From positions 2,888 through 66,887 of the forward strand of contig JBDREC010000030.1 of assembly GCA_043820105.1 (NCBI GenBank): a stretch of 64,000 nucleotides of DNA, written 5' to 3'. The position numbers and the translations under genes were made by a program. The stretch is from Pseudomonadota bacterium. Its GTDB lineage: Bacteria; Bdellovibrionota_F; JAHFAK01; JBDREC01. The stretch's first letter is position 1; the number at the start of each line of letters is the position of its first letter. The notes under the pieces are model-generated. The model was not told where the DNA came from, ran no database searches, and saw only the letters and a list, made by a program, of their open reading frames with translations. Shown here piece by piece: positions 7,276-59,820 of the stretch.

Positions 7276-7330
7276 ATTCAAAATTCAAGATTCAAAATTC
7301 AAAATTAAGGATAAAAGTTGAAAGAGAAGA
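7276..7330. repeat. Left copy of ~45-bp direct repeat: (TTCAAAA/TTCAAGA)x4 followed by TTAAGGATAAAAGTTGAAAG
   Basis: Near-identical copy at 7672..7720. Contains the TTG start of the four-helix-bundle ORF. Confidence 0.8.
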
Positions 7331-7713
7331 ATTTAATTTTAGAGAAAACTTTTGGGTTTTCTATTATGATATATAAATTATACAAGGAATTAGTAATAAA
7401 GGAAAAAGAATATATTATTGCCAAGCAGGTTTTAAAAAGTGGTACATCAATAGGAGCGAATGTGAATGAGGCGCAGGCTGCGATGAGCAAGAAGGATTTT
7501 ATAGCAAAGCTTGAAATTGCATCCAAAGAAGCGAGAGAAACTCAATATTGGATAGATCTTTTAATAGCAGTTCAAATTGTTAATAAAGAAAATAAAGTAA
7601 TAAAAATAATTCATAATGAAATTATTGCTATTAATAAAATATTATCAAAAATCATCATAACAACAAAGAATAAGATTCAAGATTCAAGATTCAAAATTAA
7701 GAATAAAAGTTGA
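7318..7713 (+). CDS. Four-helix-bundle protein (23S rRNA intervening-sequence protein family, TIGR02436-like)
   Basis: TTG start. The motif LKSGTSIGANVNEAQ...SKKDFIAKLEIASKEARETQYWIDLL is the family hallmark. The start lies in the left copy and the stop in the right copy of a flanking direct repeat. Confidence 0.75.
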   Translation: MKEKNLILEKTFGFSIMIYKLYKELVIKEKEYIIAKQVLKSGTSIGANVNEAQAAMSKKDFIAKLEIASKEARETQYWIDLLIAVQIVNKENKVIKIIHNEIIAINKILSKIIITTKNKIQDSRFKIKNKS

Positions 7714-7758
7714 AATAAAAATTAATCTTGAATTTTGAATCTTGAATTTTGAATTAAT
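7672..7758. repeat. Right direct repeat copy (7672-7720) plus adjacent inverted heptamer array (7725-7758)
   Basis: AAGATTCAAGATTCAAGATTCAAAATTAAGAATAAAAGTTGAAAT, then TCTTGAATTTTGAATCTTGAATTTTGAATT, which is the reverse complement of the heptamer part. Contains the TGA stop of the four-helix-bundle ORF. Confidence 0.8.
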
Positions 7759-7775
7759 TTCCGGAGGAAATTACC

Positions 7776-9305
7776 ATGCTAGCAACCATAAAAACAGCCT
7801 CTCTTTATGGAATTGATGCTAGGATGATTGATGTTGAAGTTGATATTAGCGCAGGTTTTCCGGGCTATACAATTGTTGGACTAGCCGAAGGAGCCGCAAA
7901 GGAAAGCAAGGAAAGAGTTAAAACAGCTGTTAGAAATTGCGGATTTTCATTTCCTAAAGGTAGAATTACAATTAATTTAGCTCCTGCCTGGCTTAAAAAA
8001 GCAGAGTCTGCTTATGATTTGCCTATTGCTCTGGGCTTATTAATAGCCTCTAAGCAAGTTTTATCATTTATGCATCATGATTACATTGTTCTGGGAGAAA
8101 TCGGTTTGTCAGGGGAGTGCAAGGCTGTTAAGGGATGTTTAGTAGCAGTCAACGCAGGTAAAAATAATAATATTAAGCATGCAATTGTGCCAAAGGCAAA
8201 TGAAAAAGAAGCCTCTATTGTTGATGGAATTAAAGTTTTTGGAGCTAAGGATTTATATGATGCGATTGCTGCTTTAAATGGAAAGATAAAGCCTGCAAAA
8301 AAAGAAATTAGATCAGGATTAACAGAAGTAGAAATGGAATATAGCAGTGATTTTTCTGAAGTTAAGGGACAAGTAAAATTGAAAAGGGCTGTTGAAATAG
8401 CTGTTTCAGGAAATCATAATATACTTATGATTGGAAGTGCTGGCTGTGGAAAAACAATGATAGCCAAGCGTATTCCCACAATAATGCCACAAATGAGTTT
8501 TGCGGAAAGTTTAGAAACTACAAAAATTTATTCAATTGCAGGATTATTAAAATCAAAGGAAAGTTTGCTTTATGAAAGACCTTTCAGGTCTCCTCATCAT
8601 ACTATTTCAGATGTCGGAATAATTGGAGGCGGGCAGGGAATTCCAAGGCCTGGGGAGGTTTGTTTGGCAAACAACGGTGTTTTATTTCTTGATGAAATGC
8701 CTGAGTTTAAAAGGTCAGCAATAGAAGTATTAAGACAGCCGCTTGAAGATAAAAAAGTTTTTATAAATCGAGCATTAAATACAGTAAGCTATCCTGCCAA
8801 TTTTCTTTTGGTAGCTGCTATGAATCCATGCCCCTGTGGAAACCTGGGGGATGCTAAAAAAACATGTACCTGTTCAGCTGCTCAAGTTGCTAGATATTTC
8901 TTTAAAATATCATCTCCATTATTAGATAGGATTGATCTACACCTGGAAGTGCCTAGCATTAAATTTAAAGATTTAACTTCAAAAAGTTCTGAAGAAACTA
9001 GTGAAGTTGTTAAAAAGCGTGTTTGCAAGATTAGAAAAATACAAGCCAAGCGTTTTGAAAAAGAAAAAATACTTACAAATTCTGAAATGTTGCCAAAACA
9101 TCTTAATACCTTTTGTTATCTTGATAAAAAATCAAAAAGCCTTTTAAAAATAGCTGTTGATGAAAAGGGTTTTTCAGCGAGAGCTTATTCAAGAGTTATA
9201 AAGGTAGCTAGAACCATAGCAGATATGGAAGAATCAGATCTGATTATGCAGGAACATGTTGAAGAAGCTATTAATTATCGTATTCTTGATAAAATGGTTT
9301 TTTAG
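7776..9305 (+). CDS. comM: YifB/ComM family Mg-chelatase-like AAA+ ATPase
   Basis: N-terminal Lon-like domain, Walker A GSAGCGKT, and a C-terminal zinc-ribbon-like CPCG...CTC. RBS GGAGG upstream. Confidence 0.85.
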   Translation: MLATIKTASLYGIDARMIDVEVDISAGFPGYTIVGLAEGAAKESKERVKTAVRNCGFSFPKGRITINLAPAWLKKAESAYDLPIALGLLIASKQVLSFMHHDYIVLGEIGLSGECKAVKGCLVAVNAGKNNNIKHAIVPKANEKEASIVDGIKVFGAKDLYDAIAALNGKIKPAKKEIRSGLTEVEMEYSSDFSEVKGQVKLKRAVEIAVSGNHNILMIGSAGCGKTMIAKRIPTIMPQMSFAESLETTKIYSIAGLLKSKESLLYERPFRSPHHTISDVGIIGGGQGIPRPGEVCLANNGVLFLDEMPEFKRSAIEVLRQPLEDKKVFINRALNTVSYPANFLLVAAMNPCPCGNLGDAKKTCTCSAAQVARYFFKISSPLLDRIDLHLEVPSIKFKDLTSKSSEETSEVVKKRVCKIRKIQAKRFEKEKILTNSEMLPKHLNTFCYLDKKSKSLLKIAVDEKGFSARAYSRVIKVARTIADMEESDLIMQEHVEEAINYRILDKMVF

Positions 9306-9312
9306 ACCTTAA

Positions 9313-14266: not shown

Positions 14267-14303
14267 AAATTCAAAACCCAAAATTCAAAATTCAAAATTA
14301 ATC
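14267..14303. repeat. Heptamer array (AAAATTC)x4 in the murA-prmC spacer
   Basis: AATTCAAAACCCAAAATTCAAAATTCAAAATTAATCCC. Confidence 0.85.
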
Positions 14304-17617: not shown

Positions 17618-17745
17618 TTTATCAAATCCTTTGTTTAATTTAAATTGCGTGCGAATCTTTAATAAAAAACTTATTAAATTACAAGTTAAAAGTTCAATAT
17701 ATTGATTAAATTAATTTCAAATTCTAATAATATTGCCTTTTTTTT

Positions 17746-17775
17746 GTATTTGGTATTTAGTATTTGGTATTTGAC
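17746..17775. repeat. Heptamer array (TATTTGG)x4 in the rpmE / FAD-oxidase divergent spacer
   Basis: GTATTTGGTATTTAGTATTTGGTATTTGAC. Confidence 0.85.
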
Positions 17776-19446: not shown

Positions 19447-19528
19447 AATTCAATTTCAAACTTGCAGTACAAAATTAAAACTTTTAATTGTAATTTTGAA
19501 TTTTGAATTTAAAATTTTGAATTTTTTT
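19447..19528. repeat. Heptamer arrays (TTTTGAA-type) downstream of the FAD oxidase gene
   Basis: TAATTTTGAATTTTGAATTTAAAATTTTGAATTTTTTTT, preceded by an AAAATTC-type stretch. Confidence 0.8.
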
Positions 19529-23150: not shown

Positions 23151-24617
23151 TTAATACAATAAATCAGAATTATTTATTTCTTTTGGTAGTTTATTCAGTA
23201 CCTGTTTCCACATTTTTTTATCTTCCATACAAAGATAAACAGGGCAATCCGGATAGTATGATTTGATTTTTCGTTCTAGTGCTTGAAAGGCTTTTATTCT
23301 TAAAGGTTCATAATAGCGATATTTACGATCACTGTGTAAAGTAAATTCACCTAAAGGCAAAACAGAGTTTTCAAAACGTTCATTAATAATATCTTTTAAT
23401 TTTGGATCAAAACGGAAACAACCCAAGGAAAGCCAAACAAGTTTTTTGACTTGAGATTTGGATTCAAAAATTGAAAATAGTTTATCAATTACATAAGAAT
23501 ATTCTTCTTCAAATCCAGGATAAATAACAATAGGATCAAAATGAAAGGCCAGCTTAAAACCATTCTGCAAGCATGCTTTGGCTGCATTTAACCGTTGCTC
23601 AAGACTTGCTGTATATAGCTCATCAGATTCAATTATTCTGTTTGTGTTTAAAGACCACGAAATAACAATATTTGAAGCATTTTTTTTATGTCTTAAAATA
23701 TTTTCAATATAATCAGATTTTGTTTTAAATTCAATTAAGCAAGAAGGATGATTTTTAGTTATTTTGATTAGTGAACTTGAATAATTAGTAATATGATCAG
23801 TTCCCAGGGAATCAGTTAAATTTCCTGGACCAACTCTTAAGAATTTATTTTTAAACTCAAGCTCCAGCTCTTTTTCAAGGTCAGCAAGATTCGTATAAAT
23901 TGCAATAGGTTTTAAGTTCAAATAATACTGCAAAATGCAATAAGAACAATCAAAAGGACAATTGCTGCCAATATCAAAATTATGATAGTTACAACAAATC
24001 ATTTTCTTTGTTCCAGGGCAACGCCTGGCAAATTTGCCCTTTGATCTTGTAAGGAAAATAGTTTTTTTGCCCTTTAAAATTGGATTTACTGATTCAGCAA
24101 AATAGTCTCGCCAAAAATCCAGAGTAGGCGATTCATTAGGCTCTATAACTTCGATGTTTTCTTTCTGAGCATACTTTAAGGCATTTTTAGCAATAAGGTC
24201 ATTGCACGATTTTGGATCGATTATAATAGTTTCTGGCACGAATTTTGGTCTATATTCTGTTTTGCATTTGGTGTTTAATTTTGAATTTTGAATTTTGAAT
24301 TTTGAATTTATTCCCTTATTCCCTGCAATTACTGGATACCTCCGCGCCCTCAGTCGTTTTTTCACTTCCTCAACAACATTACTATAATCTTTTTCTATAT
24401 TTCTAAATTCTATATCATCTATAATTTTTTCTCTTGTGATTTTCTCTCTTTTTCTAATCTCTTCAATTAGCTCTCCAATTAACAATATATTATTCACGCT
24501 AATTGGATATTTTGTTAGATCATCAAAAAAGTTTAATATACTAGAAAAATATTTTTCTGTTTTCCTTCTTTGTTTATCGGATGGATTTCTATCTTTAAAA
24601 TATTCGTATAAATTCAT
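23151..24617 (-). CDS. Radical SAM protein, spore-photoproduct-lyase (SplB)-like, with ~110-aa N-terminal extension
   Basis: CxxxCxxC motif CPFDCSYC followed by ILQYY. The N-terminal extension contains an in-frame (TTTTGAA)x5 array at 24276-24312, read as NSKFKIQNSKLN. Confidence 0.65.
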   Translation of the reverse strand: MNLYEYFKDRNPSDKQRRKTEKYFSSILNFFDDLTKYPISVNNILLIGELIEEIRKREKITREKIIDDIEFRNIEKDYSNVVEEVKKRLRARRYPVIAGNKGINSKFKIQNSKLNTKCKTEYRPKFVPETIIIDPKSCNDLIAKNALKYAQKENIEVIEPNESPTLDFWRDYFAESVNPILKGKKTIFLTRSKGKFARRCPGTKKMICCNYHNFDIGSNCPFDCSYCILQYYLNLKPIAIYTNLADLEKELELEFKNKFLRVGPGNLTDSLGTDHITNYSSSLIKITKNHPSCLIEFKTKSDYIENILRHKKNASNIVISWSLNTNRIIESDELYTASLEQRLNAAKACLQNGFKLAFHFDPIVIYPGFEEEYSYVIDKLFSIFESKSQVKKLVWLSLGCFRFDPKLKDIINERFENSVLPLGEFTLHSDRKYRYYEPLRIKAFQALERKIKSYYPDCPVYLCMEDKKMWKQVLNKLPKEINNSDLLY

Positions 24618-36050: not shown

Positions 36051-36051
36051 G

Positions 36052-41203: not shown

Positions 41204-41274
41204 GTACAGCGTACAGAGTACAGCGTACAGCGTGATTATCTTTTACGCCGTACGCTGTACGCCGTACGCTGTAC
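41204..41274. terminator. Long imperfect inverted repeat built from CGTACAG heptamers (29-nt arms, 13-nt loop) between pfk and deoB
   Basis: Left arm GTACAGCGTACAGAGTACAGCGTACAGCG. Right arm CGCCGTACGCTGTACGCCGTACGCTGTAC. Function as terminator or attenuator is inferred. Confidence 0.4.
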
Positions 41275-41290
41275 TTTCTAAGGTATTTAT

Positions 41291-42451: not shown

Positions 42452-42495
42452 ATAAAACGCCGTACGCTGTACGATTTCCCCAAAAGGAGACTAAT

Positions 42496-43803: not shown

Positions 43804-43980
43804 GTTTATTAATTTAAAATAATTCGCGACATTCAATACACAAGCAGTTAATTGCAACAAAAATATTGCCCCAAATTATCATTTAATTACATGTATTTAA
43901 AAAACGACCAAGCCATTGCCACGTGGCATCATTTTTGCATGCTTATTTTGCTAAATTTATTTTTCATTATAGGGCATTTT

Positions 43981-46900
43981 ATGAGACTAATTACTTTTTC
44001 ACTAAAGATAAAAAACTGTTTTTCTTATTTCTTAATTATAGCTGTTCAATTTTTGTTTATATTAGAATTAAGTTTATATGCTTCTTCAGAAAACTGTATG
44101 AGGCTTTTTTCAGATGAAAGAATTATTTCAACCCAAGATAGCCAGCAAGTAAATAAAGAAACCGCACAACAAGCATCTGCTAACTCACAAAGAAATTCTG
44201 CTAAAGATAAAATCATTTTTTCAATTAATGCTCCAAAGAGTATTTCGAATAAAGTAGAACTAGCTTCTGAAATGTTAGAAAGAGAAATGCAGGCAAATTA
44301 TGGATCATACTCATCAGAGCACCCAGTATTTAAATATGTTGAATCCATTTTAAAGGATATCTTTGCAGGTCTTGATGGAAAGCCTTTCAAGTTAATAGTA
44401 ACGAAAGGATGGGAAGAAGTAAATGCATGTGTTTTAGGCAATGGAACAATTATTTTTTCAGACAGATTACTAACTTTTTGTGAAACTGTAGAAGAGCTTC
44501 ATTTTATTTTAAGTCACGAAGTAATACATGCAAAAAAGCATCTCAAAGAATATGAAGACAAACAGGATACAACAGTTGGAACACTCTTAAAAGACTTCTA
44601 TCAAAACCTGTTTAGGGATAGAATGCAAGAGTATGAAGCAGATATTAGAGGTTTTACAGAAGGGTCGGGTTCAAGTGATTCAATTATTAATCCTTATGGA
44701 GGGATTGTTTTTTTTAATCGCTTAATGGAAATTGAAAGATCTTCTAAAAGCAAATATAATCGCAGCTTTAATTATGGTCTTACTCATGGTAGAAGTGCAG
44801 ATAGGCTTTTAAACCTTCACTTTGCAACAAGATTAGTTGATATTGACAATCTCTCAAGAGATTTGACTGTAATTCCTGATGAAATAAGAGACAAACTAGA
44901 TTTTCGAAGGTCTTTAGAAAAAGAAATATTGAAACCATTGGAAGTTAAATCAGGAGAAGATCTAAGTAATATTATTTCTGCAAGAGAAGCAGCTTTGGAA
45001 AAAGCTAATTTTTATATATTAAAAAATGCAGTGTCCATTTTATATAAGAGATATATGGATAAATATTCATCAAGGAGAACTGCCAGTGATAGTGATAATT
45101 TTTTAGAACCAATTGAAAAAGAGTTTTTACTTAAAACTCTTAATGCCTTTAAAAAAGAAATCGATATAATTTTAGAAGAAAAAAAGGTTCCAGTTTTTTT
45201 AAGGCCCTTATTCCGTGGAATAATAATTGCTTTAAGTTCTGATTTGCCAATAGAAGATGCAAGACCAATGCTTGATGGCTCTGACCCGGAAAATGCATTA
45301 GCCTGTTTTAGAGATTTTTTTGATTATTTTGAAGATAAGGCTGACTACCTTGATTTGCCTGATAATTTGGAAGAATTTGCAAAACTTGATTTGCCTCTTA
45401 CAAATAAACCAAAAGAACTCCTGCAATTTTTGATAAATGAATCTTTAGATGAGGAAATTTTTAGTGATAATCAGGGCAATTTTGACCTTGGACTATATAG
45501 AGACTATGTGCGCAGGCTAAGTGAGTCAACAAAGAAACTTTATGATAAAGTTGGATTAACTAAAGATATAGATTCAAATATGCTTTATGCAGAACTTTTG
45601 CCTTATGCTTTATTAAACTATTCAAGAGATGAAATGAATCAAGTTGCCCAGGATCTTATCTTAGATGTTGGTGAAAATATGAATGATTTTTATGAAGCAG
45701 CCAGAAAGGATGTGGAAATTCCCGAGAAAGTATTAGATAAAGCAAAAAAGAATTTAGAGGAAAGTGATAATAAAAAAGATATATCACCAAAAAGAAAAGA
45801 GTTTTTGGATATAGCAATGGAATACCTTAATAGCTTTAGAGACTTTATAAAGAATCCTCCAGAGGAATTTGAATCAGAATTTATAGCGGAATCTGCTTTT
45901 ATTGAAAATCATAGCAAAACATTTATAAGTAAAATAGATTCATTTGCATGGAAAACTCAAGAAGAAGTAATTATAGCATTAACAAAATTATTCAGAGAAG
46001 ATCTCAATAAAGAAGACATTAGAAAAGTTGTAAAGCTAATATTTGAATGCCCGGACTTTTTCTCAAGTAAAAGATCTTATATTGATGAGAATATGAGTCC
46101 AGTAGGTAAGGCTGCATTTTTAGTTAGAATATTAAGATTCTGTTTTGATTTTGATGAGTTTGGCTCCCTTGTTGGACACAAGGCTTCAATTCCAGATTTT
46201 CTTAACAATGGTTTTAGCTTTACTAGCAGATGGGAATATATTGATAAAAGAACAAATAATGCAGAAATTAAAGAACTCTATAAAATGCTTTTTCATAATA
46301 TAGAATCTATTAATGATCTTAAAGCTACAGAAACAAAAAAAGACGAAGCAATAGAAGATTCATATAATCAAATATATTTTGCTTATTTAGATTACTTGAG
46401 CAAAGAAAAAAATATAGAAGAGTTTAGAATATTATTTGATGATATAATAGATATTGCTCCTAGAAATAGCACTGAGTTTTTAGAATTTCAATTAACAGCA
46501 GCAGCATCTATTTTTGAAAATTATGATTTTGATTTTTCTAATCCTGAGCATTTAGACCTTTATATAAAAGCATGTTCTTTGGTTCCAGATAGTGTACTTG
46601 CTTCGCAGTTAGTTGAAAATGGTCTGGAAAAAGCTTTTGATTATCTGGATAACAAAACACTTGAAAATTATTTATTTCAAGATGAAAGGCTTGCTTTTTT
46701 ATCATTAACAAAAATTAGATCTAGATACATAAATGAGCGTATCCGATCAGTTGAACATCTTGACAGAGCTTTAGAAAAAATCGCCTCAGCCTCTATTCCA
46801 AAACAGCAATCAATACAAGAAAGGGGAGGCAAAGCTTTAATAGGAAATGAAATATTGGATATCTTAATTAATGACCCATTTAATTTTCTCAAAATCGCAA

Positions 46901-48675
46901 TTTTTGAAAGACATTCAGACATGAAGCTTAAAACAGCCTTACTAAATGCCTATCTTTTTTATGTTGAAAATATTGTGCATTTGGGTGGTAACCCTGCAGA
47001 CAGAAGAACAGAAGAAGATTTTATTGGTTTTGCAAGCCATTATGAAAGAATGTTTTCTTTAGATAATGTCACAAAACATAATATTTTAAAAAAATTATTA
47101 ATTGGAGAAAATGGTGTCTTAAGAAATGAAAGTAAGAAGCTAGAAATGCTTGAGCTTATATTGGAAGTTCTAGTCAGAGAAGGAAAAACAGATGCAGAGA
47201 GCAGGCTACGCTCAATATTGAGCATTGGTTTAAAATCCATTGCAATGCAGGCAGATGATATTTCATTATATTTTTTCATAGCAAACTTTTTACATGATCA
47301 AATGTTTATAAGACCTGAAAGTGAAAGCTCTTGGGTTGATGTACTGATTGAATCAGATGTTTTCAAAGATTATAGCAGAGAGTATTACAAAAAAGAAGAA
47401 CTTGAAGAACTTGCTAAACCAATTGCCAATGCTATTAGTAGCTCTCCAAGTGCTAAACATGACAGTTATATTTTTTATGAAGGATCTAGTCCAAATTTAG
47501 ATCTTTTAAGAAGAAATCTTTTTGATAAAGCTTCAAGATACTTGCCAAGCATAGAAGGAGGTGAAAAGAAAAATTACTCGCCAGTTGAATTCATTGTTGA
47601 AGTAGCAAGCAACTTATATGCACCAGGTAAAAGAGCATTACAAATAATGGGACAATATCTAGAGATCCCTGAAGAGTTTGAAGAAGATTTTTCAAAGGTC
47701 TATGATGCAATGGAAGGTCAGTCTAAGTTATCAGGCTATCACACCTTGAAAAGAAACTGGGAAGGTTCAGAAGAAGAGCTTCTTGATTTTGGTTTATATG
47801 AAGGGGGTGGCTCTTTGGTAACAGTGTGGAAGGCAGAAACAAAAAGAAATGGTACTGAAGTTTTAAGAGTGCTAAACCCTAATGTAGAATATCACATGCA
47901 AGAGATATGTGATATTTTAGAAGAAGCTTTTAGGAAGCTAGAAGCAGAATATCCTGATGCAAGACTTGCAGTACTTGCAGTTAATGATATAAGAGAGTGG
48001 ATAAGACGAGATATTAATGACCAAAACTTTTGGGATAATGATGTAATTTTTCATGATTTACACCATGGGTTTTCTGCACCTGGTTCTGGGTTTAGTATTT
48101 ATATCCCAAAGTCTTATGAACCAAGATCTGCTAAAGTAAAAAGAGAAGAATATATTGAGGGCATAAATCTAACAAGATGGCAAGGCACAGAAGAAGAAAG
48201 AAAAGATATAGTAAGTTCAATTGTAGTAAATTTTATTTATCAAATTGGAAATGGCTTAGTTTTATCTGATATTCATCCCGGTAATATTAGAATTATGAAT
48301 GGCAATAAAATTGCCTATCTTGACAGGAATCTTTATATTGAAATCACAGGAGCAGAAAAGGACTTATTATCATCTGTTATAACTGGACAAGAATTAATAA
48401 TTATTGATACTTTTACTTCATATTTACAGGAAATACCTGAAAACAGAAACATTAATGTTCAGGCAATCCTTGAAAATGCAGTCTTAGCATCTTCAAACAT
48501 TAATGACCCAACAAAAAGATTTTTAGATATCCTGGTAAAGGTAAAATCTTCAAATATCAAAGTACCCTTAAAAATTACCTTATTAATTAAAAATGCTTTA
48601 GCTCTAAATAAAATGTCTAAAAAAGCAGGCTTTAATAGTTTAGTTGAAGCAGCAATGTATCCACATACAAGATAG
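43981..48675 (+). CDS. Giant membrane-anchored multidomain protein: M48-like HExxH peptidase domain, long helical region, C-terminal UbiB/ABC1-like atypical kinase domain
   Basis: N-terminal hydrophobic helices. VNACVLGNGTIIFSDRLL...ELHFILSHEVIHAKKH is the M48/M56 pattern. The C-terminus has a Gly-rich loop EGGGSLVTVWKAE, DIHPGNIRI (compare ABC1 DPHPGNI) and a YLDRN DFG-like motif. Start moved to the Met at 43981 (MRLITFSL). Confidence 0.65.
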   Translation: MRLITFSLKIKNCFSYFLIIAVQFLFILELSLYASSENCMRLFSDERIISTQDSQQVNKETAQQASANSQRNSAKDKIIFSINAPKSISNKVELASEMLEREMQANYGSYSSEHPVFKYVESILKDIFAGLDGKPFKLIVTKGWEEVNACVLGNGTIIFSDRLLTFCETVEELHFILSHEVIHAKKHLKEYEDKQDTTVGTLLKDFYQNLFRDRMQEYEADIRGFTEGSGSSDSIINPYGGIVFFNRLMEIERSSKSKYNRSFNYGLTHGRSADRLLNLHFATRLVDIDNLSRDLTVIPDEIRDKLDFRRSLEKEILKPLEVKSGEDLSNIISAREAALEKANFYILKNAVSILYKRYMDKYSSRRTASDSDNFLEPIEKEFLLKTLNAFKKEIDIILEEKKVPVFLRPLFRGIIIALSSDLPIEDARPMLDGSDPENALACFRDFFDYFEDKADYLDLPDNLEEFAKLDLPLTNKPKELLQFLINESLDEEIFSDNQGNFDLGLYRDYVRRLSESTKKLYDKVGLTKDIDSNMLYAELLPYALLNYSRDEMNQVAQDLILDVGENMNDFYEAARKDVEIPEKVLDKAKKNLEESDNKKDISPKRKEFLDIAMEYLNSFRDFIKNPPEEFESEFIAESAFIENHSKTFISKIDSFAWKTQEEVIIALTKLFREDLNKEDIRKVVKLIFECPDFFSSKRSYIDENMSPVGKAAFLVRILRFCFDFDEFGSLVGHKASIPDFLNNGFSFTSRWEYIDKRTNNAEIKELYKMLFHNIESINDLKATETKKDEAIEDSYNQIYFAYLDYLSKEKNIEEFRILFDDIIDIAPRNSTEFLEFQLTAAASIFENYDFDFSNPEHLDLYIKACSLVPDSVLASQLVENGLEKAFDYLDNKTLENYLFQDERLAFLSLTKIRSRYINERIRSVEHLDRALEKIASASIPKQQSIQERGGKALIGNEILDILINDPFNFLKIAIFERHSDMKLKTALLNAYLFYVENIVHLGGNPADRRTEEDFIGFASHYERMFSLDNVTKHNILKKLLIGENGVLRNESKKLEMLELILEVLVREGKTDAESRLRSILSIGLKSIAMQADDISLYFFIANFLHDQMFIRPESESSWVDVLIESDVFKDYSREYYKKEELEELAKPIANAISSSPSAKHDSYIFYEGSSPNLDLLRRNLFDKASRYLPSIEGGEKKNYSPVEFIVEVASNLYAPGKRALQIMGQYLEIPEEFEEDFSKVYDAMEGQSKLSGYHTLKRNWEGSEEELLDFGLYEGGGSLVTVWKAETKRNGTEVLRVLNPNVEYHMQEICDILEEAFRKLEAEYPDARLAVLAVNDIREWIRRDINDQNFWDNDVIFHDLHHGFSAPGSGFSIYIPKSYEPRSAKVKREEYIEGINLTRWQGTEEERKDIVSSIVVNFIYQIGNGLVLSDIHPGNIRIMNGNKIAYLDRNLYIEITGAEKDLLSSVITGQELIIIDTFTSYLQEIPENRNINVQAILENAVLASSNINDPTKRFLDILVKVKSSNIKVPLKITLLIKNALALNKMSKKAGFNSLVEAAMYPHTR

Positions 48676-50420: not shown

Positions 50421-50446
50421 AATTCAAAATTCAAAATTCAAAATTA
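50421..50446. repeat. Heptamer array (AATTCAA)x3.5 between the membrane-protein gene and the HAD hydrolase gene
   Basis: AATTCAAAATTCAAAATTCAAAATTA. Confidence 0.85.
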
Positions 50447-51221
50447 TATCTATTGTTTCAGCAAACCCCAAACCACCCGGTTTTGTTGTAATGAATTTAG
50501 GTAAATTTGAGATCTGATCTTGAAAATTGGAGATATTTGCAACACCAATTGAATTATTAAATTTTTTAAACATTGGTTCATCATTTGGGGAGTCACCAAT
50601 GAAAATTGAATTGTTATTAATTTCTTCAAATGACTTATTAAGCATTTCTTTTGAAAACTTATCAATCATTGTTGCCTTATCATAAGCTCCAAACCATCCA
50701 TTTACATGAATAGAACTAATTTTTGAAATAGCTCCATGCTTTGTAAAGATTTCTACTATTTTATTTATTTCTTCTTTTGAAAGAGGATCAATATCTTCAC
50801 AAAAATCAATTGCCAAATCAAATTCTCGATAAGCCTGGTCAGATGAGACTATTGCATTGGGAACCTCAAGTAATACTTCATTTTCAATTGCCTTAAGCTT
50901 TGCTTTAGCATTTATAGTTTCTTCTTTTGAGAAAAAATATTTCTTATTAAGCTTTCCATTCTTCATGTAAAAATAGAAGGCTCCATTTTCACCAATAACA
51001 GCAAAGACTGGCCACATTCTGGCAATGTGATCAACCCAACCAGCAGGTCTTCCTGTAACAGGAATGACTTTTATGCCAGCATCAAATGCTTTCCAAAGGG
51101 CATTAAAGCTTTCCTTTATAAGTTTGCCTTCATGAGTAATGGTATCATCAATGTCTGCAAAAATATATTTAATCTTTGATAAACAGGATTCAGAGTTTTC
51201 TAATAGTTTCATTTTTACCAA
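50424..51221 (-). CDS. HAD-IIB (Cof-type) hydrolase, mannosyl-3-phosphoglycerate-phosphatase-like
   Basis: Motif I FADIDDTIT, motif II PVTGRP, and a C-terminal GDSPNDEPMF. Confidence 0.75.
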   Translation of the reverse strand: MVKMKLLENSESCLSKIKYIFADIDDTITHEGKLIKESFNALWKAFDAGIKVIPVTGRPAGWVDHIARMWPVFAVIGENGAFYFYMKNGKLNKKYFFSKEETINAKAKLKAIENEVLLEVPNAIVSSDQAYREFDLAIDFCEDIDPLSKEEINKIVEIFTKHGAISKISSIHVNGWFGAYDKATMIDKFSKEMLNKSFEEINNNSIFIGDSPNDEPMFKKFNNSIGVANISNFQDQISNLPKFITTKPGGLGFAETIDIILNFEF

Positions 51222-51257
51222 CTAATTAATTCAAAATTTAAAATTCATAGTCCAAAA

Positions 51258-52700
51258 TCAAAGAATATATCTACTCAAATCTTCATCCTTCGCCAAATCA
51301 TCAAGTCTTTCTTTAACATAACCCTTAGTGATCTCTATGGTCTGCGCCGGCAAATCCGGGGCCTCAAATGAAATCTCATCAAAGATTTTTTCCATGACAG
51401 TATGCAGTCTTCTTGCTCCAATGTTTTCAGTTTTTTCATTAACATATTCAGCTATTTCTGAAATTTCTGCAACTGCTTCATCTGTAAATTGAATATCAAT
51501 GTCTTCAGTTTTCATCATCTCCACATACTGTTTTGTTAAAGAATTTTCAGGCTCAGTTAGAATTCTTTGAAAATCATTTTTAGTAAGCCTATTGAGCTCA
51601 ACTCTTATTGGAAATCTTCCTTGAAGTTCTGGAATAAGATCTGATGGTTTTGATATATGAAAAGCACCAGAGGCTACAAAAAGGATATGGTCTGTTTTAA
51701 TCATGCCATATTTAGTCATTACATTGGAACCCTCGACTATTGGCAGAATATCTCTTTGTACACCCTGTCTGGAAACATCAGGCCCTTGTTTAGAGCCTTG
51801 GCTTGCAATTTTGTCAATCTCATCTAAAAAGATAATACCAGAATTCTCAGCTCTTTTTACAGCTTCCTTGGAAACCTTATCCATATCCATTAAACGATTG
51901 ATTTCATCATTAATGATTATTTCACGAGCCTCTTTGATTTTCATCTTCCGTCTTTTGCTTTTTTTAGGAAACATATTTCCTAAAGCTTCTTGCATATTCA
52001 TTTGCATATCATCTGGAATCTGACCAGAAAAAATTTCAATTGAAGGAATTGATTTTGATTTAGTCTCAATTTCAATTTCTTTTTCTTCAAGCTTTTCTTC
52101 ATCAAGCAGTAGTTTTAATTTTTCACGGCTTTCTGATTTTTTTTCTTCCTCTTCTTGAAGTCTTTGCTCTTTTAATACATCACCTAGATCAGGTTGACTA
52201 TCCTGATTCATTCGATCAAAGTGTGTATTTCTTGAAAAAGGAGGTTTCATGCGAGGTTTAGCAGGAGTGGGTAGTAATAAATCAAGCAGCTTTTCTTGCG
52301 CATTTATTTTAGCTTTTTCATAAAGCCTTTCTCTTTCTTCTGCTTTAACCATATTAACACTTATTTGGACAAGGTCTCTGACCATTGATTCAACATCTTT
52401 GCCCACATATCCAATTTCAGTAAACTTTGAAGCCTCTACTTTAATAAATGGCGCTTGGGCGAGCTTAGCTAGCCTTCGTGCTATTTCAGTTTTTCCAACA
52501 CCTGTTGGTCCAATCATGATGATGTTCTTTGGTGTAATTTCATCACGCATATCTTCAGAAACGTTTTGTCTTCTCCATCTATTTCTAAGAGCAATGGCTA
52601 CTGCACGTTTTGCTTTATCCTGTCCAATAATATATCGATCAAGCTGAGCTACGACTTCTTTTGGAGTTAAAGTTAGTTTATTTTCCATTAAATTCTCCAT
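51258..52700 (-). CDS. hslU: ATP-dependent protease ATPase subunit HslU (CodX-like)
   Basis: [34 protein letters not shown] plus Walker [16 protein letters not shown]. Confidence 0.9.
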
Positions 52701-52776
52701 ATTTTTTATTAAGTGATTAAAAGCAAATAAAATGTAAATTGTAAAAACTACTTACCACTTACCACTTACCACTTAT

Positions 52777-53331: not shown

Positions 53332-53361
53332 GTTGCTGGTTGCTGGTTGCTAGTTGCTGGT
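53332..53361. repeat. Heptamer array (GTTGCTG)x4
   Basis: Read directly in the hslV upstream spacer. Confidence 0.85.
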
Positions 53362-53432
53362 GAAAAAACCTATCACATAATAACAAACAAGCAGCAATCC
53401 AAATTTATCTAAGTGTTTGAATTTGGTTTTCT

Positions 53433-53468
53433 ACCACTTACCACTTACCACTTACCACTTACCACTTA
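53433..53468. repeat. Heptamer array (CTTACCA)x5
   Basis: Read directly. The same unit recurs at 52749-52776, 40096-40126 and, as its complement, at 29693-29731. Confidence 0.85.
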
Positions 53469-54378: not shown

Positions 54379-54503
54379 TTATAAATAATTTCGTTTGCTT
54401 AAGTTATTAATAAATAAGTATTGTTTTGGTGTTTGTCAAGGTGTAGTGAACATATTAAATTTTGAATTTTGAATTTTAGATTTTGGATTATGGTTTTAGA
54501 CAG

Positions 54504-55778: not shown

Positions 55779-56003
55779 TCCATTAAGATTAATTATAATA
55801 CTACTTGCAGCAAACTAAAGTGACCAGAGCGCCAGAGCACCAGTCTCCAGGTTTGATTAATATAACTAGCAAACAATTTATGCTGTATATCTCATTGCAT
55901 AATATAAAATCAAGTAAATCTTTTCCTAAAAAACTTGACATAATGCGTCGCATTGTGATATTGCTTCGCGTGAACAATCTACAAGACTATATGGGGTACT
56001 CTT

Positions 56004-57689: not shown

Positions 57690-57829
57690 TTAAAATATAT
57701 TTATGGGGAAAAAGTTTTTTTTCCTGGCACCATGTATGGAATTGTTTTAAAAAGACATTATTATATAAAGAAATATTGAATTCAAATAAATATAGCTTTT
57801 TCAATTATATAATTATAATAAAACAAACC

Positions 57830-58153
57830 ATGGATAGCTTAAAATTAAAATATAAAACGCCACATCTTTTTGAGTTTAATAAAAATAGAAACTCTAAAAC
57901 AGCCTGCTTTAGTGGTTCAGGCGCAAAATATACTTCAGCACTTGATGCGTTTGTATGTAATACTGGAAGCGATAAAGGTGGAAATCCAGATCCAGGATGC
58001 ATGCATGGAGACGGAAACACTAATAATCAAAAATTCATCCTTGTTTGTGGCTTAGGTTCGGCTGTTGTTGCTGCAAGAGAGTGCTCAGGCGGAAGCGGGT
58101 TTAGCTTAAGAGATGATGCCTGTTATATAGGTAATGGTGCAGGTCCACATTAA
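57830..58153 (+). CDS. Small Cys/Gly-rich protein (8 Cys in 84 aa after a 24-aa polar leader), hypothetical
   Basis: The ORF-track frame starts at 57671. The start is set at the Met at 57830 because the upstream part looks like non-coding AT-rich text. Local GC is visibly higher than the flanks. Confidence 0.4.
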   Translation: MDSLKLKYKTPHLFEFNKNRNSKTACFSGSGAKYTSALDAFVCNTGSDKGGNPDPGCMHGDGNTNNQKFILVCGLGSAVVAARECSGGSGFSLRDDACYIGNGAGPH

Positions 58154-58367
58154 TATATATATTGATAAATTTTAAGCGTATTTCTAAGTAAGCAGCATAA
58201 TCCTGGACATTAATACCCCATCCTATTAAGCTATCATAATGTAACCCATTGTAATAATTGTAATACAAAAACTATCTCTGTGGCGTAAAACTTGCAAAGA
58301 TTTCTTTTGATTTTAATTTATTTTAGTACTATGAAAATTAAGTATTTAATATTTTGGGAGTTTATTT

Positions 58368-59057
58368 GTGAAACAACACATTCTTAGATTAATTTCGGCT
58401 CTGATCATTATCTCAATAATTCCCATATTTCTTAATGCCATAAACCTTGAAAATTCTGAAGATGAAGAAAAGATCATTTGTTTAATTGATGAAGCCTTAC
58501 TTCCCCTTTATAATAATGAAGATAGTGAAGAAAGATTGCTGTCAATAATAGATGAAATGATATTAATTTTCACCAAATATTATAACCAAAAAAAAGGCAA
58601 AGGTCTTTTTGCAAGACAGGAAGCCTTTGATAAAAGGATTATTTTTCAAAGGGTTGTTAACGGGTTTCTAATTATTTCAGATATTCAAACTAGTGAAAGG
58701 GCAGATTTAAAAATCTTAAAATTCCTAATTTCAATAAATGGATGCACAATGGACATATCAGTTATCACAATAAAAAAGCTTTTGCTGAATAAAGTTGAAA
58801 CTGTAGTTGAAAACTTTGAGCTTGGCGATTTTGTTTATAAGAAAATAACATTATCAAGAAAATATTTATTGTATTTTGTAAATGATATCAGGCAATACTA
58901 TAGTCGCAGAGTAAGTAAACTTGACTTCAATGTAGAAAGTTTTAGAGACAAATTGAGCAGGGTATATGTTCAAGTAAATTACTATAAGTTAAGAGATGAT
59001 CTAGCAGCCACATTTGATGAACTAGATGAAATCATTCCAAAACCCACCAAGAAATAA
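58368..59057 (+). CDS. Hypothetical protein with N-terminal signal/anchor
   Basis: GTG start 8 nt after GGGAG. 229 aa. Confidence 0.5.
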   Translation: MKQHILRLISALIIISIIPIFLNAINLENSEDEEKIICLIDEALLPLYNNEDSEERLLSIIDEMILIFTKYYNQKKGKGLFARQEAFDKRIIFQRVVNGFLIISDIQTSERADLKILKFLISINGCTMDISVITIKKLLLNKVETVVENFELGDFVYKKITLSRKYLLYFVNDIRQYYSRRVSKLDFNVESFRDKLSRVYVQVNYYKLRDDLAATFDELDEIIPKPTKK

Positions 59058-59820
59058 ACGTAACGTCTGATAACAGATATTATGTCAAATTTAAATCTTT
59101 TTCCGGACTTTAATGAACTTGCCTATAGCTTATCGTCCTTTGGATATTTTTGCTTCAATACCTTTATAAACTTAGGTAAATCCCAAAGACCCCTTTTTGC
59201 TTATTTGGATTTCTAATTTCCTTAGCATTTTAAATTTTATTGACCAGAACTAGCACTTTTTTTGTTTATTTTATTAACATCTTATGTCTTTGATCTTTAT
59301 ATCTAAATTCCCCATCCTAATACCAAAAACCAAATATTAACTCCATGCCTAGACCTTCCTTTAATTGAAAAGTCTTCTCAGAGGCTAAATATGAAAGCCG
59401 TTTTTTTACATAAAAACGAATAAAACTGAATTTGCAGACCCTGGTTCAAAATAAGACTCTTAGGGCATAATTTGCAATTTTTCACTCAAAACAAAGTGAA
59501 GTAGCAAGCAAAAAAAAGATTAAACATTTCGTCCTCTACATTGATTACACCTCTATAATGCCGAATTCATTGCACATTTCAAACCACGCAGTTTTCTTGC
59601 CCTTATTATCTGTCTATCTCCAGGATGCCTCATAAAAAACGCATCGCGCAATTAGGCTTGGCGCGTTATTTTTAATTTGCATCTACATTTTGAAATTGAA
59701 ATTGCAAATTTTAAATATTGAAAATGGATATATTCGTGGAATTTAATAAAAGGACCCTCTTTTCAATCTTAATTTTCCTTTTAATCTTGAGTAAATTTTA
59801 CTTGATATGATATTTTAATT

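Follow-up and report, generated by a model that had tools for sequence, protein, structure and literature searches.

Tandem heptanucleotide arrays recur across the window, by which we mean the whole 64,000-nt stretch of DNA analysed, and at one site two of them enclose a gene of the S23p family as inverted arms. We propose, with a probability of about one half, that the arrays belong to a family of insert-like S23p cassettes, as arms, as deletion derivatives or as orphan arms. The arrays themselves belong to a known repeat class (STRR-type) whose link to S23p has apparently not been described so far, and the cassette layout offers a testable origin for a 35-year-old heptamer-repeat puzzle. The S23p or four-helix-bundle family (PF05635) has a relative in Avd, a protein of diversity-generating retroelements. 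The host is a delta-like uncultured bacterium with 31% G+C, and its RF1 and HslU match those of delta-type MAGs best (60–70% identity); a cyanobacterial host was ruled out by HslUV, LolA and flavorubredoxin, and no HIP1 was seen.

Heptamer arrays in the window

Comparison of strict arrays (at least 3 copies, at least 85% self-match) with 30 third-order Markov simulations revealed 20 period-7 arrays in the window against a mean of 1.03 expected (maximum 3), and counts for periods 5, 6 and 8–14 at or below expectation. When periods 5–15 were scanned for perfect runs of 3 copies or more, only period 7 had any (6 loci), and TRF agreed. These counts bear out the sequence-only reading, which had listed about 20 heptamer arrays and had proposed setting period 7 against periods 6 and 8. 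Most of the loci it listed are heptameric; 36862–36900 (period 19), 55823–55852 (period 8, 2.6 copies in TRF) and 59688–59725 (period 6) are not, and 33184–33330 and 38884–38935 are degenerate or weak as heptamer arrays. Two further arrays, 51228–51262 and 42457–42473, were absent from that list.

Among 23 curated arrays, 17 are entirely non-coding, 4 lie across an ORF end and 2 within ORFs; 21 are in or touch non-coding DNA, which makes up 8,801 of the 64,000 nt (14%), in agreement with the intergenic preference noticed before. Inverted pairs and an array inside a coding region, both reported earlier, are also present: 6 of the 20 arrays are paired with an inverted array no more than 500 nt away, and 24277–24309 lies in frame in a long ORF, encoding NSKFKIQNSKL.

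An S23p gene between inverted heptamer arms

One locus carries both arms and a gene:

7270–7760, plus strand: complete insert-like cassette of left arm, S23p gene and right arm (fold, arm match)
7275–7306, plus strand: left arm, (AATTCAA)4.6, one unit of which is the variant GATTCAA (TRF, unit comparison)
7318–7713, plus strand: S23p / four-helix-bundle gene (PF05635 and PDB 2RLD matches)
7672–7702, plus strand: internal direct array (AAGATTC)4.4 at the ORF 3' end (unit comparison)
7724–7755, plus strand: right arm, (AATCTTG AATTTTG)2.2, the left arm's reverse complement (TRF, complementarity, fold)

The cassette lies between a LiaG-like gene (6371–7099) and yifB (7776–9305), with its right arm ending 19 nt 5' of the yifB ATG, just upstream of GGAGG. 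Its gene encodes 131 aa from a TTG start with an AAGGA Shine-Dalgarno sequence; the product matched PF05635 in Pfam (E = 3.1e-21) and 2RLD in the PDB (E = 2.7e-29, 5 chains), and an NCBI entry titled 'MAG: four helix bundle protein' has the identical sequence (100%). The arms match without gaps at 37 of 38 positions (a stem of ~38 bp): the left arm is complementary to 7728–7748 at 21/21 positions, and its variant unit is mirrored at the corresponding position in the right arm. Folding the RNA from 7262 to 7772 (z = -3.9) placed a long-range stem, 7270–7308 with 7722–7760, around the ORF in both the minimum-energy and the centroid structure. The internal array, part of a 37–45 nt direct repeat of left arm and leader (7276–7330 against 7672–7725), also pairs with 7724–7755 in a local hairpin (-35.3 kcal/mol, z = -7.6).

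The same arrangement was found for 30 of the 32 S23p genes examined, spread over the window and 29 further sequences that represent at least seven phyla. These cassettes comprise all 6 S23p genes located by HMM in 1.8 Mb, each with upstream and downstream arrays; all 18 plasmid-borne homologues (Cyanobacteriota, Bacteroidota, Spirochaetota, Chloroflexota, Bacillota); and all 6 closest metagenomic or genomic homologues (Hydrogenimonas, Sulfurimonas, Omnitrophica and others). Upstream and downstream arrays are reverse-complementary in every array-flanked locus but one (L194). Flank-complementarity scores run from 10 to 35 (median ungapped stem 30.5 nt), and 27 of the 30 exceed 12, the maximum of 370 control ORFs of similar size. 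Loops of 53 inverted heptamer pairs measured 1–21 nt in 29 pairs and formed another cluster at 384–420 nt, where every pair encloses an S23p gene. Counting against the cassette reading are the two S23p homologues that lack arrays, on gut contigs filed as 'unverified phage'.

Close S23p proteins (77–91% identical pairs) have array units in common, and the nearest relatives of the window's protein (50–59% identical) have arms of the TTTTGAA/AATTCAA unit family, in the other orientation: AATTCAA is upstream in the window, TTTTGAA in the closest relatives. Such comparisons indicate that the arms are inherited together with the S23p gene. Among delta-type MAGs, the hslU–argB spacer occurs in three states (empty, with an ORF-less heptamer hairpin, and with stem plus S23p), and one locus (L021) is an L010-type cassette that has lost ~300 nt of the ORF and keeps both arms. 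No target-site duplication or clean empty site was found for the cassettes; the copies in Nostoc flagelliforme lie within larger duplications.

Other arrays in the window

The remaining arrays are as follows:

14267–14299: solitary AATTCAA-family array, prmC–murA spacer (TRF, unit comparison)
17742–17773: solitary (TATTTGG)4.6 upstream of a GlcD-like oxidase gene (TRF, unit/partner comparison)
19447–19525: weak inverted pair downstream of the GlcD-like gene (partner 17/21)
24277–24309: perfect (AATTTTG)4.7 in the N-terminal extension of a radical-SAM (SPL-like) ORF, in the stop-free orientation (TRF, translation)
28910–28949: degenerate (AAATTGA)5.7, divergent spacer upstream of lolA (TRF)
29692–29731: (TAAGTGG)5.7 at the end of lolA (TRF)
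33183–33329: degenerate inverted pair (AAATCAC/AAATTAC arm and complement), loop without ORF (fold, partner 19/21)
38888–38935: weak four-unit CTTTCAG-like array with small hairpin, divergent htpG / sugar-kinase spacer (fold z = -1.3; no TRF call)
40009–40036: (TACGCCG TACGCTG)2 (TRF period 14, 100%)
40061–40092: (TACTGAA)4.6 between two partly complementary arrays, sugar-kinase–pfk spacer (TRF, fold)
40096–40126: (CTTACAG/CTTACCA)4.4, partly complementary to 40009–40036 (TRF)
41204–41274: ORF-less hairpin, pfk–deoB spacer (-49.7 kcal/mol, z = -8.7; partner 19/21)
42457–42473: short TACGCYG copy of 2.4 units, deoB–deoA spacer (unit comparison)
50421–50445: perfect (AATTCAA)3.6 between convergent genes (TRF, perfect-run scan)
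51228–51262: degenerate AATTCAA-family array right behind the hslU stop (TRF)
52750–52775: perfect (TAAGTGG)3.7 on the coding strand, immediately 3' of the hslV stop (TRF, perfect-run scan)
53332–53361: (GTTGCTG)4.3, 12 nt 5' of the hslV start, beside its Shine-Dalgarno sequence (TRF)
53432–53468: perfect (TAAGTGG)5.3 on the coding strand, 1 nt after an xerC/D-like stop (TRF, perfect-run scan)
54458–54489: solitary AATTCAA-family array, 3–14 nt after the thiC stop (TRF)

The strongest ORF-less stem, 41204–41274, consists of (GTACAGC)4.3, a 10-nt loop and (TACGCCG TACGCTG)2.2; the pair at 33183–33329 folds at -35.1 kcal/mol (z = -4.2). Three arrays, beginning with 40009–40036, fill the sugar-kinase–pfk spacer (z = -3.7 for 40000–40142); the last has a borderline partner score (16/21) and ends 16 nt 5' of the pfk ATG, upstream of AGAGG. 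The pair at 19447–19525 has a degenerate complementary left half, (TTTTGAA)4.9 at 19492–19525 and then a T run, and folds with only z = -1.7. At 14267–14299 the array fills its spacer, from 3 nt after the prmC stop to 21 nt before the murA start; it is unstructured in the fold and has no inverted partner (best 14/21). The lolA ORF extends 17 nt into its array, which supplies the TAA stop, and a minus-strand HAD-hydrolase ORF ends within 50421–50445. Many delta-type MAGs carry arrays at the same site as 51228–51262, after the hslU stop.

The notion that each locus has its own unit is refuted by the recurrence of AATTCAA (about nine times), TAAGTGG (three) and TACGCYG (four). In canonical form, AAAATTC (equivalent to AATTCAA/TTTTGAA) occurs at 7275, 7724, 14267, 19492, 24277, 50421, 51228 and 54458, and close variants of it at 7672 and 28910; AAGTGGT at 29692, 52750 and 53432; and ACGCYGT at 40009, 41244 and 42457, with an inverted copy at 41204. 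One unit class therefore holds 8–10 of the 23 arrays, and AATTCAA is both the window's cassette arm and its most frequent solitary unit. Adjacent spacers have units in common, these units are also those of the local S23p cassette's arms, and solitary arrays in cassette-bearing loci belong to the cassette's unit family. The earlier preference for a shared mechanism over spread of an element had the diversity of units as its premise, which is false; because units recur, are common to neighbouring spacers and match S23p cassette arms, the balance shifts towards spread of element families.

Abundance and size across genomes

In 1.05 Mb of Thermodesulfobacteriota-type MAG loci we counted 87 heptamer arrays, against 21 at period 5, 25 at period 6 and 10 at period 8; 31 of the 87 have an inverted partner within 500 nt. 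Of 69 delta-type loci, 37 contain heptamer arrays, as do at least 120 metagenome contigs, and a prior survey, as summarised in PMC4679880 and PMC4692102, ranked heptanucleotides as the commonest long repeat class (Mrazek et al., 2007). The supposition that such arrays are rare in bacteria outside cyanobacteria does not survive these figures. Copy number at periods 5, 6, 8 and 9 declines monotonically; at period 7 it dips at 3 and has a second mode at 4 copies, or 30–34 nt. This size is favoured alike by cassette arms, arms of ORF-less hairpins (median ~29 complementary bases) and solitary arrays.

Discussion

We suggest that STRR-type heptanucleotide repeats belong to small inserts built on an S23p gene. 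The intact copy is 7270–7760, whose arms are predicted to pair in the transcript. The ORF-less pairs 41204/41244 and 33183/33288, and the weaker 19447/19492 and 40009/40096, would be stems minus the gene, having arisen at least sometimes by internal deletion. Some 12–14 solitary arrays, of the same 30–34 nt size and largely the same units, may be orphan arms. The elements lie in transcribed spacers, where they take up the room between the stop codon of the upstream gene and the Shine-Dalgarno sequence of the downstream one. By analogy with rRNA inserts, paired arms would form a long double-stranded RNA open to RNase III, and cleavage would remove the insert or sever the operon transcript at the spacer, leaving the flanking genes undamaged. 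We infer that the family is mobile. Slippage probably changes the copy number over time, 7 or 14 nt at a step, given that the window holds perfect 14-nt double units and Coxiella strains vary (PMC4990558).

Several facts count against this model. Arrays outnumber S23p genes ~20:1 or more (1 gene per 23 arrays in the window), and 120 TAAGTGG-bearing contigs hold 2 S23p genes. About one third of arrays have an inverted partner and no S23p remnant was found near any other array in the window, so solitary arrays are tied to cassettes by size and unit only. Nor does the model supply a reason for a unit of 7 nt.

An unlikely alternative is that ordinary slippage with a heptamer bias creates arrays in place, unrelated to S23p, wherever non-coding DNA tolerates them, and that S23p genes then insert preferentially in the loops of hairpins formed by chance pairs of arrays. 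A heptamer excess in many bacteria and polymerase slippage as its proposed cause are already published, according to the accounts in PMC4679880 and PMC4692102; the double units and the strain-variable Coxiella repeats show slippage at work, most arrays are solitary and distant from any S23p gene, and the 4:4 orientation of AATTCAA relative to transcription fits a DNA-level process. However, the units are not local random sequence, given the dominant class and a unit with 5/7 G+C found 4 times in a genome so poor in G+C; the copy-number distribution is non-geometric, unlike every other period; cassette arms track protein phylogeny across unrelated hosts; and a heptamer hairpin would have had to pre-exist in 23S rRNA helix 45, where the Coxiella insert sits. 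Somewhat more doubtful is that the arrays bind a protein with a 7-nt register on nucleic acid, which would adjust how the flanking genes are translated or how stable their mRNA is. Candidates are a cold-shock or S1-type protein with an OB fold, in line with a proposal for TAACTGA repeats, and the pentameric S23p ring itself with one subunit per unit. Consistent with this are the position of arrays in transcribed spacers, abutting stop codons and Shine-Dalgarno sequences; the favoured 4–5 units beside S23p homologues that crystallise as pentamers (2RLD, 5 chains; a Xanthomonas homologue is cited as a homopentamer in PMC4990558); an S23p gene flanked by its own genome's commonest unit; altered reporter expression after deletion of heptamers upstream of Nostoc recF and recO (bioRxiv 10.1101/2022.06.06.494920); and CspB binding heptamer repeats with one protein per unit, as cited in PMC4679880. 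Yet the main family has no orientation bias, several unrelated units lie side by side in one genome, and the reversed arm orientation between the window's cassette and its closest relatives does not sit easily with a protein that recognises a specific sequence in single-stranded RNA.

That the arrays are intrinsic terminators or attenuators seems very improbable. Inverted pairs do form strong hairpins, a T run follows 19492–19525, and 38–56 kb holds 19 terminator-like sites against 9.1 in shuffled sequence (~2x), but the majority of arrays stand alone without structure (z = +1.45 for 54379–54503, the spacer of 54458–54489), and the strong stems have no T tail after them and lie inside operons, directly 5' of the next gene's Shine-Dalgarno sequence. 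Assembly artefacts, conceivable in a metagenome-assembled genome, can be practically dismissed: arrays of 25–40 nt are shorter than a sequencing read, and finished genomes and plasmids show the same architecture (Hydrogenimonas CP136593, Nostoc punctiforme, Anabaena cylindrica).

The likeness to cyanobacterial STRR heptamers noticed in the sequence-only reading holds, as 12 fetched Nostocales plasmid loci have the same architecture, 2 of them with the window's own AATTCAA/TTTTGAA unit. The layout is likewise that of the S23p-containing intervening sequences in 23S rRNA: the Coxiella insert has an S23p ORF, a 28-bp stem of terminal inverted repeats and 3–4 tandem GACAGAT heptamers, their number varying between strains, and is cleaved by RNase III at the first repeat (PMC4990558).

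Results

Period-7 arrays are in excess in the window

Tandem Repeats Finder returned ~25 period-7 rows between 7.2 and 54.5 kb of the window, and because several of these arrays are perfect at period 14, array growth proceeds in double units. Under a fixed rule (at least three copies, at least 85% self-match and no shorter period), we counted 20 strict period-7 arrays, as compared to a mean of 1.03 and a maximum of 3 in 30 third-order Markov simulations; counts at periods 5, 6 and 8–14 were at or below expectation under the same rule and simulations, and among periods 5–15 perfect runs of at least three copies were found at period 7 alone. These data bear out the central claim of the sequence-only reading, a scatter of ~20 period-7 arrays, although its particulars require revision: among the 20 loci it listed, 15 are clear heptamer arrays and two are degenerate (33184–33330 and 38884–38935), whereas three are not heptameric, so that the period, said to be always 7, is 19 at 36862, 8 at 55823 and 6 at 59688. 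Two heptamer arrays were absent from that list, one at 51228–51262 and a 2.4-unit copy at 42457. The proposal that every locus has its own unit is refuted by consensus units that recur: AATTCAA/TTTTGAA at 8 window loci and 2 near variants, TAAGTGG at 3 loci, and TACGCYG in 3 consecutive spacers and 1 inverted copy. Some units (CTTACCA, CTTACAG and GTACAGC) differ from one another by one or two changes. As had been anticipated, the arrays are predominantly intergenic: non-coding DNA amounts to 8,801 nt (14% of the window), and 21 of 23 arrays lie in it or touch it (17 wholly non-coding, 4 overlapping ORF ends), the remaining 2 lying within ORFs.

Copy number at period 7 has a second mode at 4 copies, or 30–34 nt, both in the window and in delta-type loci (69 MAG loci retrieved via HslU). 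Periods 5, 6, 8 and 9 show a monotonic fall with copy number.

Period-7 arrays by copy number
Window: 2 copies, 9; 3 copies, 3; 4 copies, 12; 5 copies, 4
Delta-type loci: 2 copies, 129; 3 copies, 33; 4 copies, 45; 5 copies, 10

Heptamer arrays bracket an S23p gene

What is known of S23p proteins comes mostly from inserts in 23S rRNA and from their kinship with Avd, and we know of no function assigned to the family. One member is encoded in the window, in what we call a cassette, an S23p gene between two heptamer arrays (arms):

7270–7760, S23p cassette
7318–7713 (+), S23p ORF; PF05635, '23S rRNA intervening sequence protein' (Pfam E = 3.1e-21); matches PDB 2RLD, five chains (E = 2.7e-29)

Upstream, (AATTCAA)4.6 stops 11 nt short of the start codon, and its reverse complement lies downstream; the arms show 37/38 ungapped complementarity, a lone variant unit included, and in a 511-nt cassette RNA the predicted stem closes the whole ORF in both minimum-energy and centroid folds. 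The neighbours are protein-coding (a LiaG-like gene and yifB). Rfam detected no rRNA in the window, and the cassette does not occupy helix 25 or 45 of 23S rRNA. No reverse transcriptase family was found among the window ORFs scanned or beside the S23p gene, and the window contains no transposase or RAYT gene; no duplication is evident at the cassette ends (7270 and 7760), and a search for decayed S23p fragments near the other window arrays found none.

The same layout recurs in other genomes. An HMM built from the window protein and run on 1.8 Mb of sequence revealed five further S23p genes, all five preceded by a heptamer array and followed by the reverse complement of that array, with a unit that differs in each. 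Inverted heptamer pairs number 53 in this sequence: 29 have loops of 1–21 nt, and a second cluster has loops of 384–420 nt, every member of which contains an S23p gene. Searching plasmids by tblastn gave 31 records, mostly from Nostoc and other cyanobacteria but also from Bernardetia (the current genus name for Flexibacter litoralis), Chondrinema, Treponema, Monoglobus and Ca. Chlorohelix. We fetched 18 for flank inspection; heptamer arrays flank the gene on both sides in 18/18 and are inverted in 17/18, the exception being an Anabaena cylindrica locus (L194) with two flanking arrays in direct orientation and a complementarity score of 11. These plasmid genes lie between cas2 and cas1, hsdS and hsdR, RND adaptor and permease, or helicase and methylase, or upstream of recF. 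The six closest homologues on long contigs (Hydrogenimonas, Sulfurimonas, Omnitrophica and three metagenomic contigs) all have the cassette layout and carry the TTTTGAA/TGTTGAA unit family of the window. Altogether, heptamer arrays of ~30 nt bracket the S23p gene in 30/32 cases from at least 7 phyla, and in all but one they are reverse-complementary arms able to form a stem. The coupling of this heptamer class to the S23p family is consistent across phyla and apparently undescribed. The family itself is large, with 8,091 cluster representatives at 50% identity.

Flank complementarity was scored without gaps and compared to that of control ORFs; RNAduplex on 150-nt flanks inflated pair counts and was replaced by this score.

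Ungapped flank-complementarity scores
30 cassettes: 10–35; median ungapped stem 30.5 nt
370 control ORFs (100–160 aa): at most 12
Two gut contigs filed as unverified phage: 8

The two gut-contig homologues have no arrays and are genuine exceptions. We had considered these contigs as a phage-Avd negative control and rejected them: they look bacterial, have no reverse transcriptase, and are no control for diversity-generating retroelements. Upstream of the two arm-less S23p homologues, dispersed 8-mers occur in direct and inverted copies at a spacing of ~20 nt (GTGATATT / AATATCAC in L209, 2240–2440; TGAAAT-type in L210, 2290–2480), and may represent a different flanking architecture in another branch of the family.

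The 7-nt unit is all that the arms share. S23p proteins that are 77–91% identical have units in common, and other arrays in cassette loci belong to the same unit family as the arms; that the unit follows the S23p protein tree is suggestive, confounded as it is by shared descent of whole operons (DUF1156-S23p-HEPN, cas2-S23p-cas1). Two comparison loci, L021 and L010, align through hslU and the left arm and for ~60 nt into the ORF; the alignment then resumes at the right arm and continues into the beginning of the gene downstream. L021 is thus a deletion intermediate, a cassette minus its gene with both arms kept. Multi-copy cassettes of Nostoc flagelliforme, in which homology spans the entire 901-nt query, were set aside as uninformative on element boundaries because they lie within larger duplications.

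Several cassettes occupy defence operons: L192, L194 and L206 (between cas2 and cas1 or adjoining cas1) and L202 (between hsdS and hsdR). The L205 cassette adjoins xisH/xisI, genes whose distribution resembles that of TAACTGA repeats (MacGregor 2015, PMC4679880). The L195 cassette lies upstream of recF, the position of the Bernardetia S23p copy, and heptamers have been reported upstream of recF in Nostoc 7120 (bioRxiv 10.1101/2022.06.06.494920).

Placement and predicted folding of arrays within operons

In the window, arrays occupy short spacers within operons. Many begin 0–3 nt past the upstream stop codon (prmC, hslV, xerC/D-like, thiC), and array ends precede a normal Shine-Dalgarno sequence (GGAGG, AGAGG, AAGG or GGAGAG), 12–21 nt from the next start codon; a degenerate array lies directly 3' of hslU. 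Two ORFs, lolA (28986–29708) and a HAD hydrolase (50424–51221, minus strand), enter a heptamer array that supplies the stop codon and encodes their final 5–7 residues; arrays have therefore remodelled gene ends. Neighbouring spacers can have a unit in common: TACGCYG occupies three spacers of the kinase-pfk-deoB-deoA operon, and hslV has TAAGTGG on either side. The orientation of the AATTCAA family relative to transcription is 4:4.

Within 40009–42473, the 14-mer TACGCCGTACGCTG occurs in three consecutive spacers of the sugar-kinase/pfk/deoB/nucleoside-phosphorylase operon, with inverted copies bracketing pfk and deoB; local spread via gene conversion, or operon-specific control, could explain this pattern.

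The inverted pairs described by the sequence-only reading are present and have very stable predicted stems:

7674–7755, inverted pair; −35 kcal/mol, z = −7.6
33183–33329, inverted pair; z = −4.2
41203–41274, inverted pair; −49.7 kcal/mol, z = −8.7

Solitary arrays, those with no inverted partner, are unstructured (z = +1.45 for 54379–54503). When a partner was defined by 21-nt complementarity (null maximum 16) at a search distance of 500 nt, 6/20 strict arrays in the window had one. The 30–34 nt mode of array size is also the size of cassette arms (median 30.5 nt) and of the arms of ORF-less hairpins (median ~29 complementary bases). The arrays do not resemble intrinsic terminators, which have a G+C-rich stem and a T run: the strong stems lack T tails and the solitary arrays are unstructured. 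A promoter and terminator scan found promoter-like sites at chance, and terminator-like sites that, trivial self-matches aside, do not coincide with arrays.

Host, gene content and other window features

The window (G+C ~31%) encodes flavorubredoxin, yifB, murA, prmC, prfA, murJ, lolA, a ClC channel, htpG, a sugar kinase, pfk, deoB, pyrimidine-nucleoside phosphorylase, a xerC/D-like gene, hslV, hslU, thiC, a HipA-type toxin island and one tRNA-Gln, the ordinary chromosomal complement of an anaerobic Gram-negative bacterium. Beyond an identical entry labelled 'Pseudomonadota bacterium' at NCBI, the next RF1 match is 70% identical and lies on a 1.2-kb contig, and HslU is ~60% identical to that of Thermodesulfobacteriota-type MAGs. 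A candidate relative, P0002, was rejected as an unrelated duplicated RF1. HIP1 is absent from the window. Because of the gene content, the RF1 and HslU matches and the absence of HIP1, we conclude that the host is not a cyanobacterium; likening the arrays to the STRR (short tandemly repeated repetitive) heptamers of heterocystous cyanobacteria thus fails in the strict sense, the gene content and top protein matches being delta-type and the NCBI label 'Pseudomonadota bacterium'.

Several features lie apart from the arrays:

32322–32729, HTH gene, ~1.2 kb from the GTGACAAAnTTTGTCAC / HipA-like region
33934–34265 and 35816–36051, ~4 copies of the palindrome GTGACAAAnTTTGTCAC, near the G18CG6 run
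34194–34218, G18CG6 run in the spacer beside the HipA-like toxin gene
35507–35815, HTH gene adjoining GTGACAAAnTTTGTCAC copies
36052–36730, nucleotidyltransferase / substrate-binding pair adjoining GTGACAAAnTTTGTCAC copies
43852–48675, ORF of 1,607 aa
59858–59930, tRNA-Gln
60496–60606, tRNA-like stretch

The HipA-like region with its GTGACAAAnTTTGTCAC copies looks like a toxin-antitoxin island with operator sites, and the G18CG6 run could be phase-variable or an assembly problem. The 1,607-aa protein has an N-terminal M48 peptidase motif and a C-terminal ABC1/UbiB-type atypical kinase domain, with no family match over most of its length. The tRNA-like stretch scores 29.0 bits, exactly the Rfam threshold, and gives no ARAGORN call; its 5' part resembles tRNA-Ser(CGA) before diverging, it lies beside tRNA-Gln and a macro-domain gene, and it may be a tRNA fragment left by integration.

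Heptamer arrays are widespread beyond the window

The supposition that this organisation is rare outside cyanobacteria does not hold. The 69 delta-type loci (1.05 Mb) contain 87 period-7 arrays, as compared to 21, 25, 10 and 2 for periods 5, 6, 8 and 9, distributed over 37/69 loci labelled Desulfobaccales, Syntrophales, Syntrophorhabdus or 'delta'; four Myxococcota, two Thermotogaceae and the Syntrophus buswellii loci of this HslU set have none. Many of the delta-type loci have an array starting at the stop codon of hslU; it lies in the spacer ahead of a gene that we read, by its N-terminal peptide alone, as a putative argB (acetylglutamate kinase), and these arrays often form an inverted pair whose unit differs by lineage. 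In addition, exact (TAAGTGG)3 occurs in at least 120 metagenome contigs, which span 29% to 68% G+C; many of them have several other heptamer arrays and almost none of other periods, and none of these 120 is a relative. A cyanobacterial origin of heptamer-rich metagenome contigs was also considered, and HIP1, looked for there, was not found. This agrees with the literature, in which heptanucleotides rank first among the long repeats of many bacteria (Mrazek et al. 2007 via PMC4679880, PMC4692102).

The delta-type MAG loci also carry a G+C-rich palindromic repeat, CTCGTTCCCGAGC...GCTTGGGAACG (L004 ~1905–1960, L007 8300–8640, L008 8420–8740), which reads '...ELGNE...' in spurious ORFs and sometimes lies between heptamer arrays; it is a second, unrelated intergenic repeat family. 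Mannose-1-phosphate guanylyltransferase is one ORF in L215 (2665–4089) and two called genes in L213 (2723–4169), where the split coincides exactly with the heptamer array 2959–3001; this array may have disrupted or frameshifted the gene.

Discussion

The window arrays are a known repeat class in a new host. We favour, with a probability of about one half, the reading that they are arms, deletion derivatives and orphan arms of a family of S23p cassettes that would be resident in transcribed spacers. Paired arms would form RNase III substrates in the window organism, by analogy with rRNA inserts; slippage would change copy number; the cassette would be mobile; and the solitary arrays, two thirds of all arrays, would be what cassettes leave behind. 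The main rival, which we consider unlikely, holds that slippage makes the arrays and that S23p genes merely home to the resulting hairpins. Polymerase slippage was proposed for long simple-sequence repeats, with no gene-family link in the account as relayed (Mrazek et al. 2007 via PMC4679880). Slippage by itself would not be expected to give the peak in array size or the recurrence of units that we observe.

Arrays might also be sites for a protein, possibly the S23p pentamer, that binds in a 7-nt register, a doubtful proposal that is nonetheless compatible with the other readings. In the closest relatives the arms are oriented opposite to those of the window cassette; this reversal argues against a sequence-specific single-stranded RNA version of the proposal, as does the lack of strand bias. 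An equally improbable extension is that the STRR-class arrays of cyanobacteria, Bacteroidota, Campylobacterota, delta-type and other bacteria are cis-elements of one widespread selfish system, whose sole protein, a pentameric S23p/Avd-like ring, would recognise ~5 tandem 7-nt units, each bound by one subunit, both in its own flanks and in orphan arrays, for cassette propagation or control of transcript processing. S23p would then be the long-sought partner of STRR repeats, and the subunit footprint would set the 7-nt period.

The evidence joins two puzzles, STRR repeats and S23p genes, in that heptamer arrays bracket the gene across phyla and gene-less or solitary versions of the cassette arrays litter the spacers of the same genomes. 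If the cassette reading is correct, arrays mark remodelled ORF ends and, probably, sites where operon transcripts are cut, and may mark breaks in short-read assemblies.

Comparison with known systems

REP/BIME and MITEs are short palindromic elements of operon spacers, with many gene-less derivatives of a rarer gene-carrying form. The window arrays resemble them in colonising spacers and in their many gene-less copies, but have no consensus beyond the 7-nt unit, no target-site duplication that we could see, and no RAYT or transposase in the window.

STRR heptamers have served for the fingerprinting of cyanobacteria since 1990, and heptamer repeats were later noticed in Xanthomonas, Beggiatoaceae and Bacteroidetes; to our knowledge, they have no agreed origin or function. 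The classical units are CCCCAGT, TTGGTCA and CAACAGT, and none of these is ever tandem in the window. Like the arrays of the window, whose host is not a cyanobacterium, STRR of Calothrix, Anabaena and Nostoc consist of a few tandem 7-nt units, are intergenic and use several units per genome. On the Nostocales plasmids that we fetched, heptamer arrays serve as S23p cassette arms, two of the plasmids using AATTCAA/TTTTGAA as the window does, and (TTTTGAA)3 has been reported genome-wide in Nostoc 7120 (bioRxiv 10.1101/2022.06.06.494920).

TAACTGA direct repeats of marine Beggiatoaceae, some Cyanobacteria and Bacteroidetes, which are characterised by a forward orientation upstream of start codons, are likewise 2–6 intergenic heptamers near start codons, with rare within-ORF copies in stop-free orientation (PMC4679880). 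Their taxa overlap the S23p matches in Bernardetia and Nostocales. The window differs in its several units, its lack of orientation bias (which holds for its main family), its normal Shine-Dalgarno sequences and the frequency of its inverted pairs; tandem TAACTGA does not occur in it, the nearest unit being TACTGAA at 40061. GGGAATC / GGGGAYT heptamers of Xanthomonas and Nostoc are also intergenic, with some inverted pairs, and are retained between the same genes while varying in length among relatives; they can form G-quadruplexes (PMC4692102), whereas the window units are mostly A+T-rich without G tracts. For long simple-sequence repeats, the work as relayed by a later paper describes heptanucleotides as commonest among 5–11 nt units, mainly non-coding and phylogenetically scattered (Mrazek et al. 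2007 via PMC4679880), features that the present arrays share.

PF05635 proteins resemble Avd of diversity-generating retroelements, with a homologous four-helix-bundle fold and pentamers (PMC10053308; 2RLD), but the window gene adjoins the LiaG-like gene and yifB rather than a reverse transcriptase. A literature search, which left most subscription journals outside its range, found nothing beyond PMC4990558 that links S23p or four-helix-bundle genes to heptamer repeats, and that paper draws no connection to STRR-type repeats. The S23p inserts in 23S rRNA of Coxiella, Leptospira and Brucella resemble the window cassette, with a looped S23p ORF, a terminal inverted-repeat stem of ~28–38 bp and tandem heptamers directly 5' of the ORF (PMC4990558). 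The Coxiella insert is 428 nt long, has a 28-bp terminal inverted-repeat stem and three or four tandem GACAGAT, a strain-variable number, before its S23p ORF, and is cut by RNase III at the first GACAGAT repeat (PMC4990558). The window element differs from these inserts in its location, which is an mRNA spacer between protein genes rather than helix 25 or 45 of 23S rRNA.
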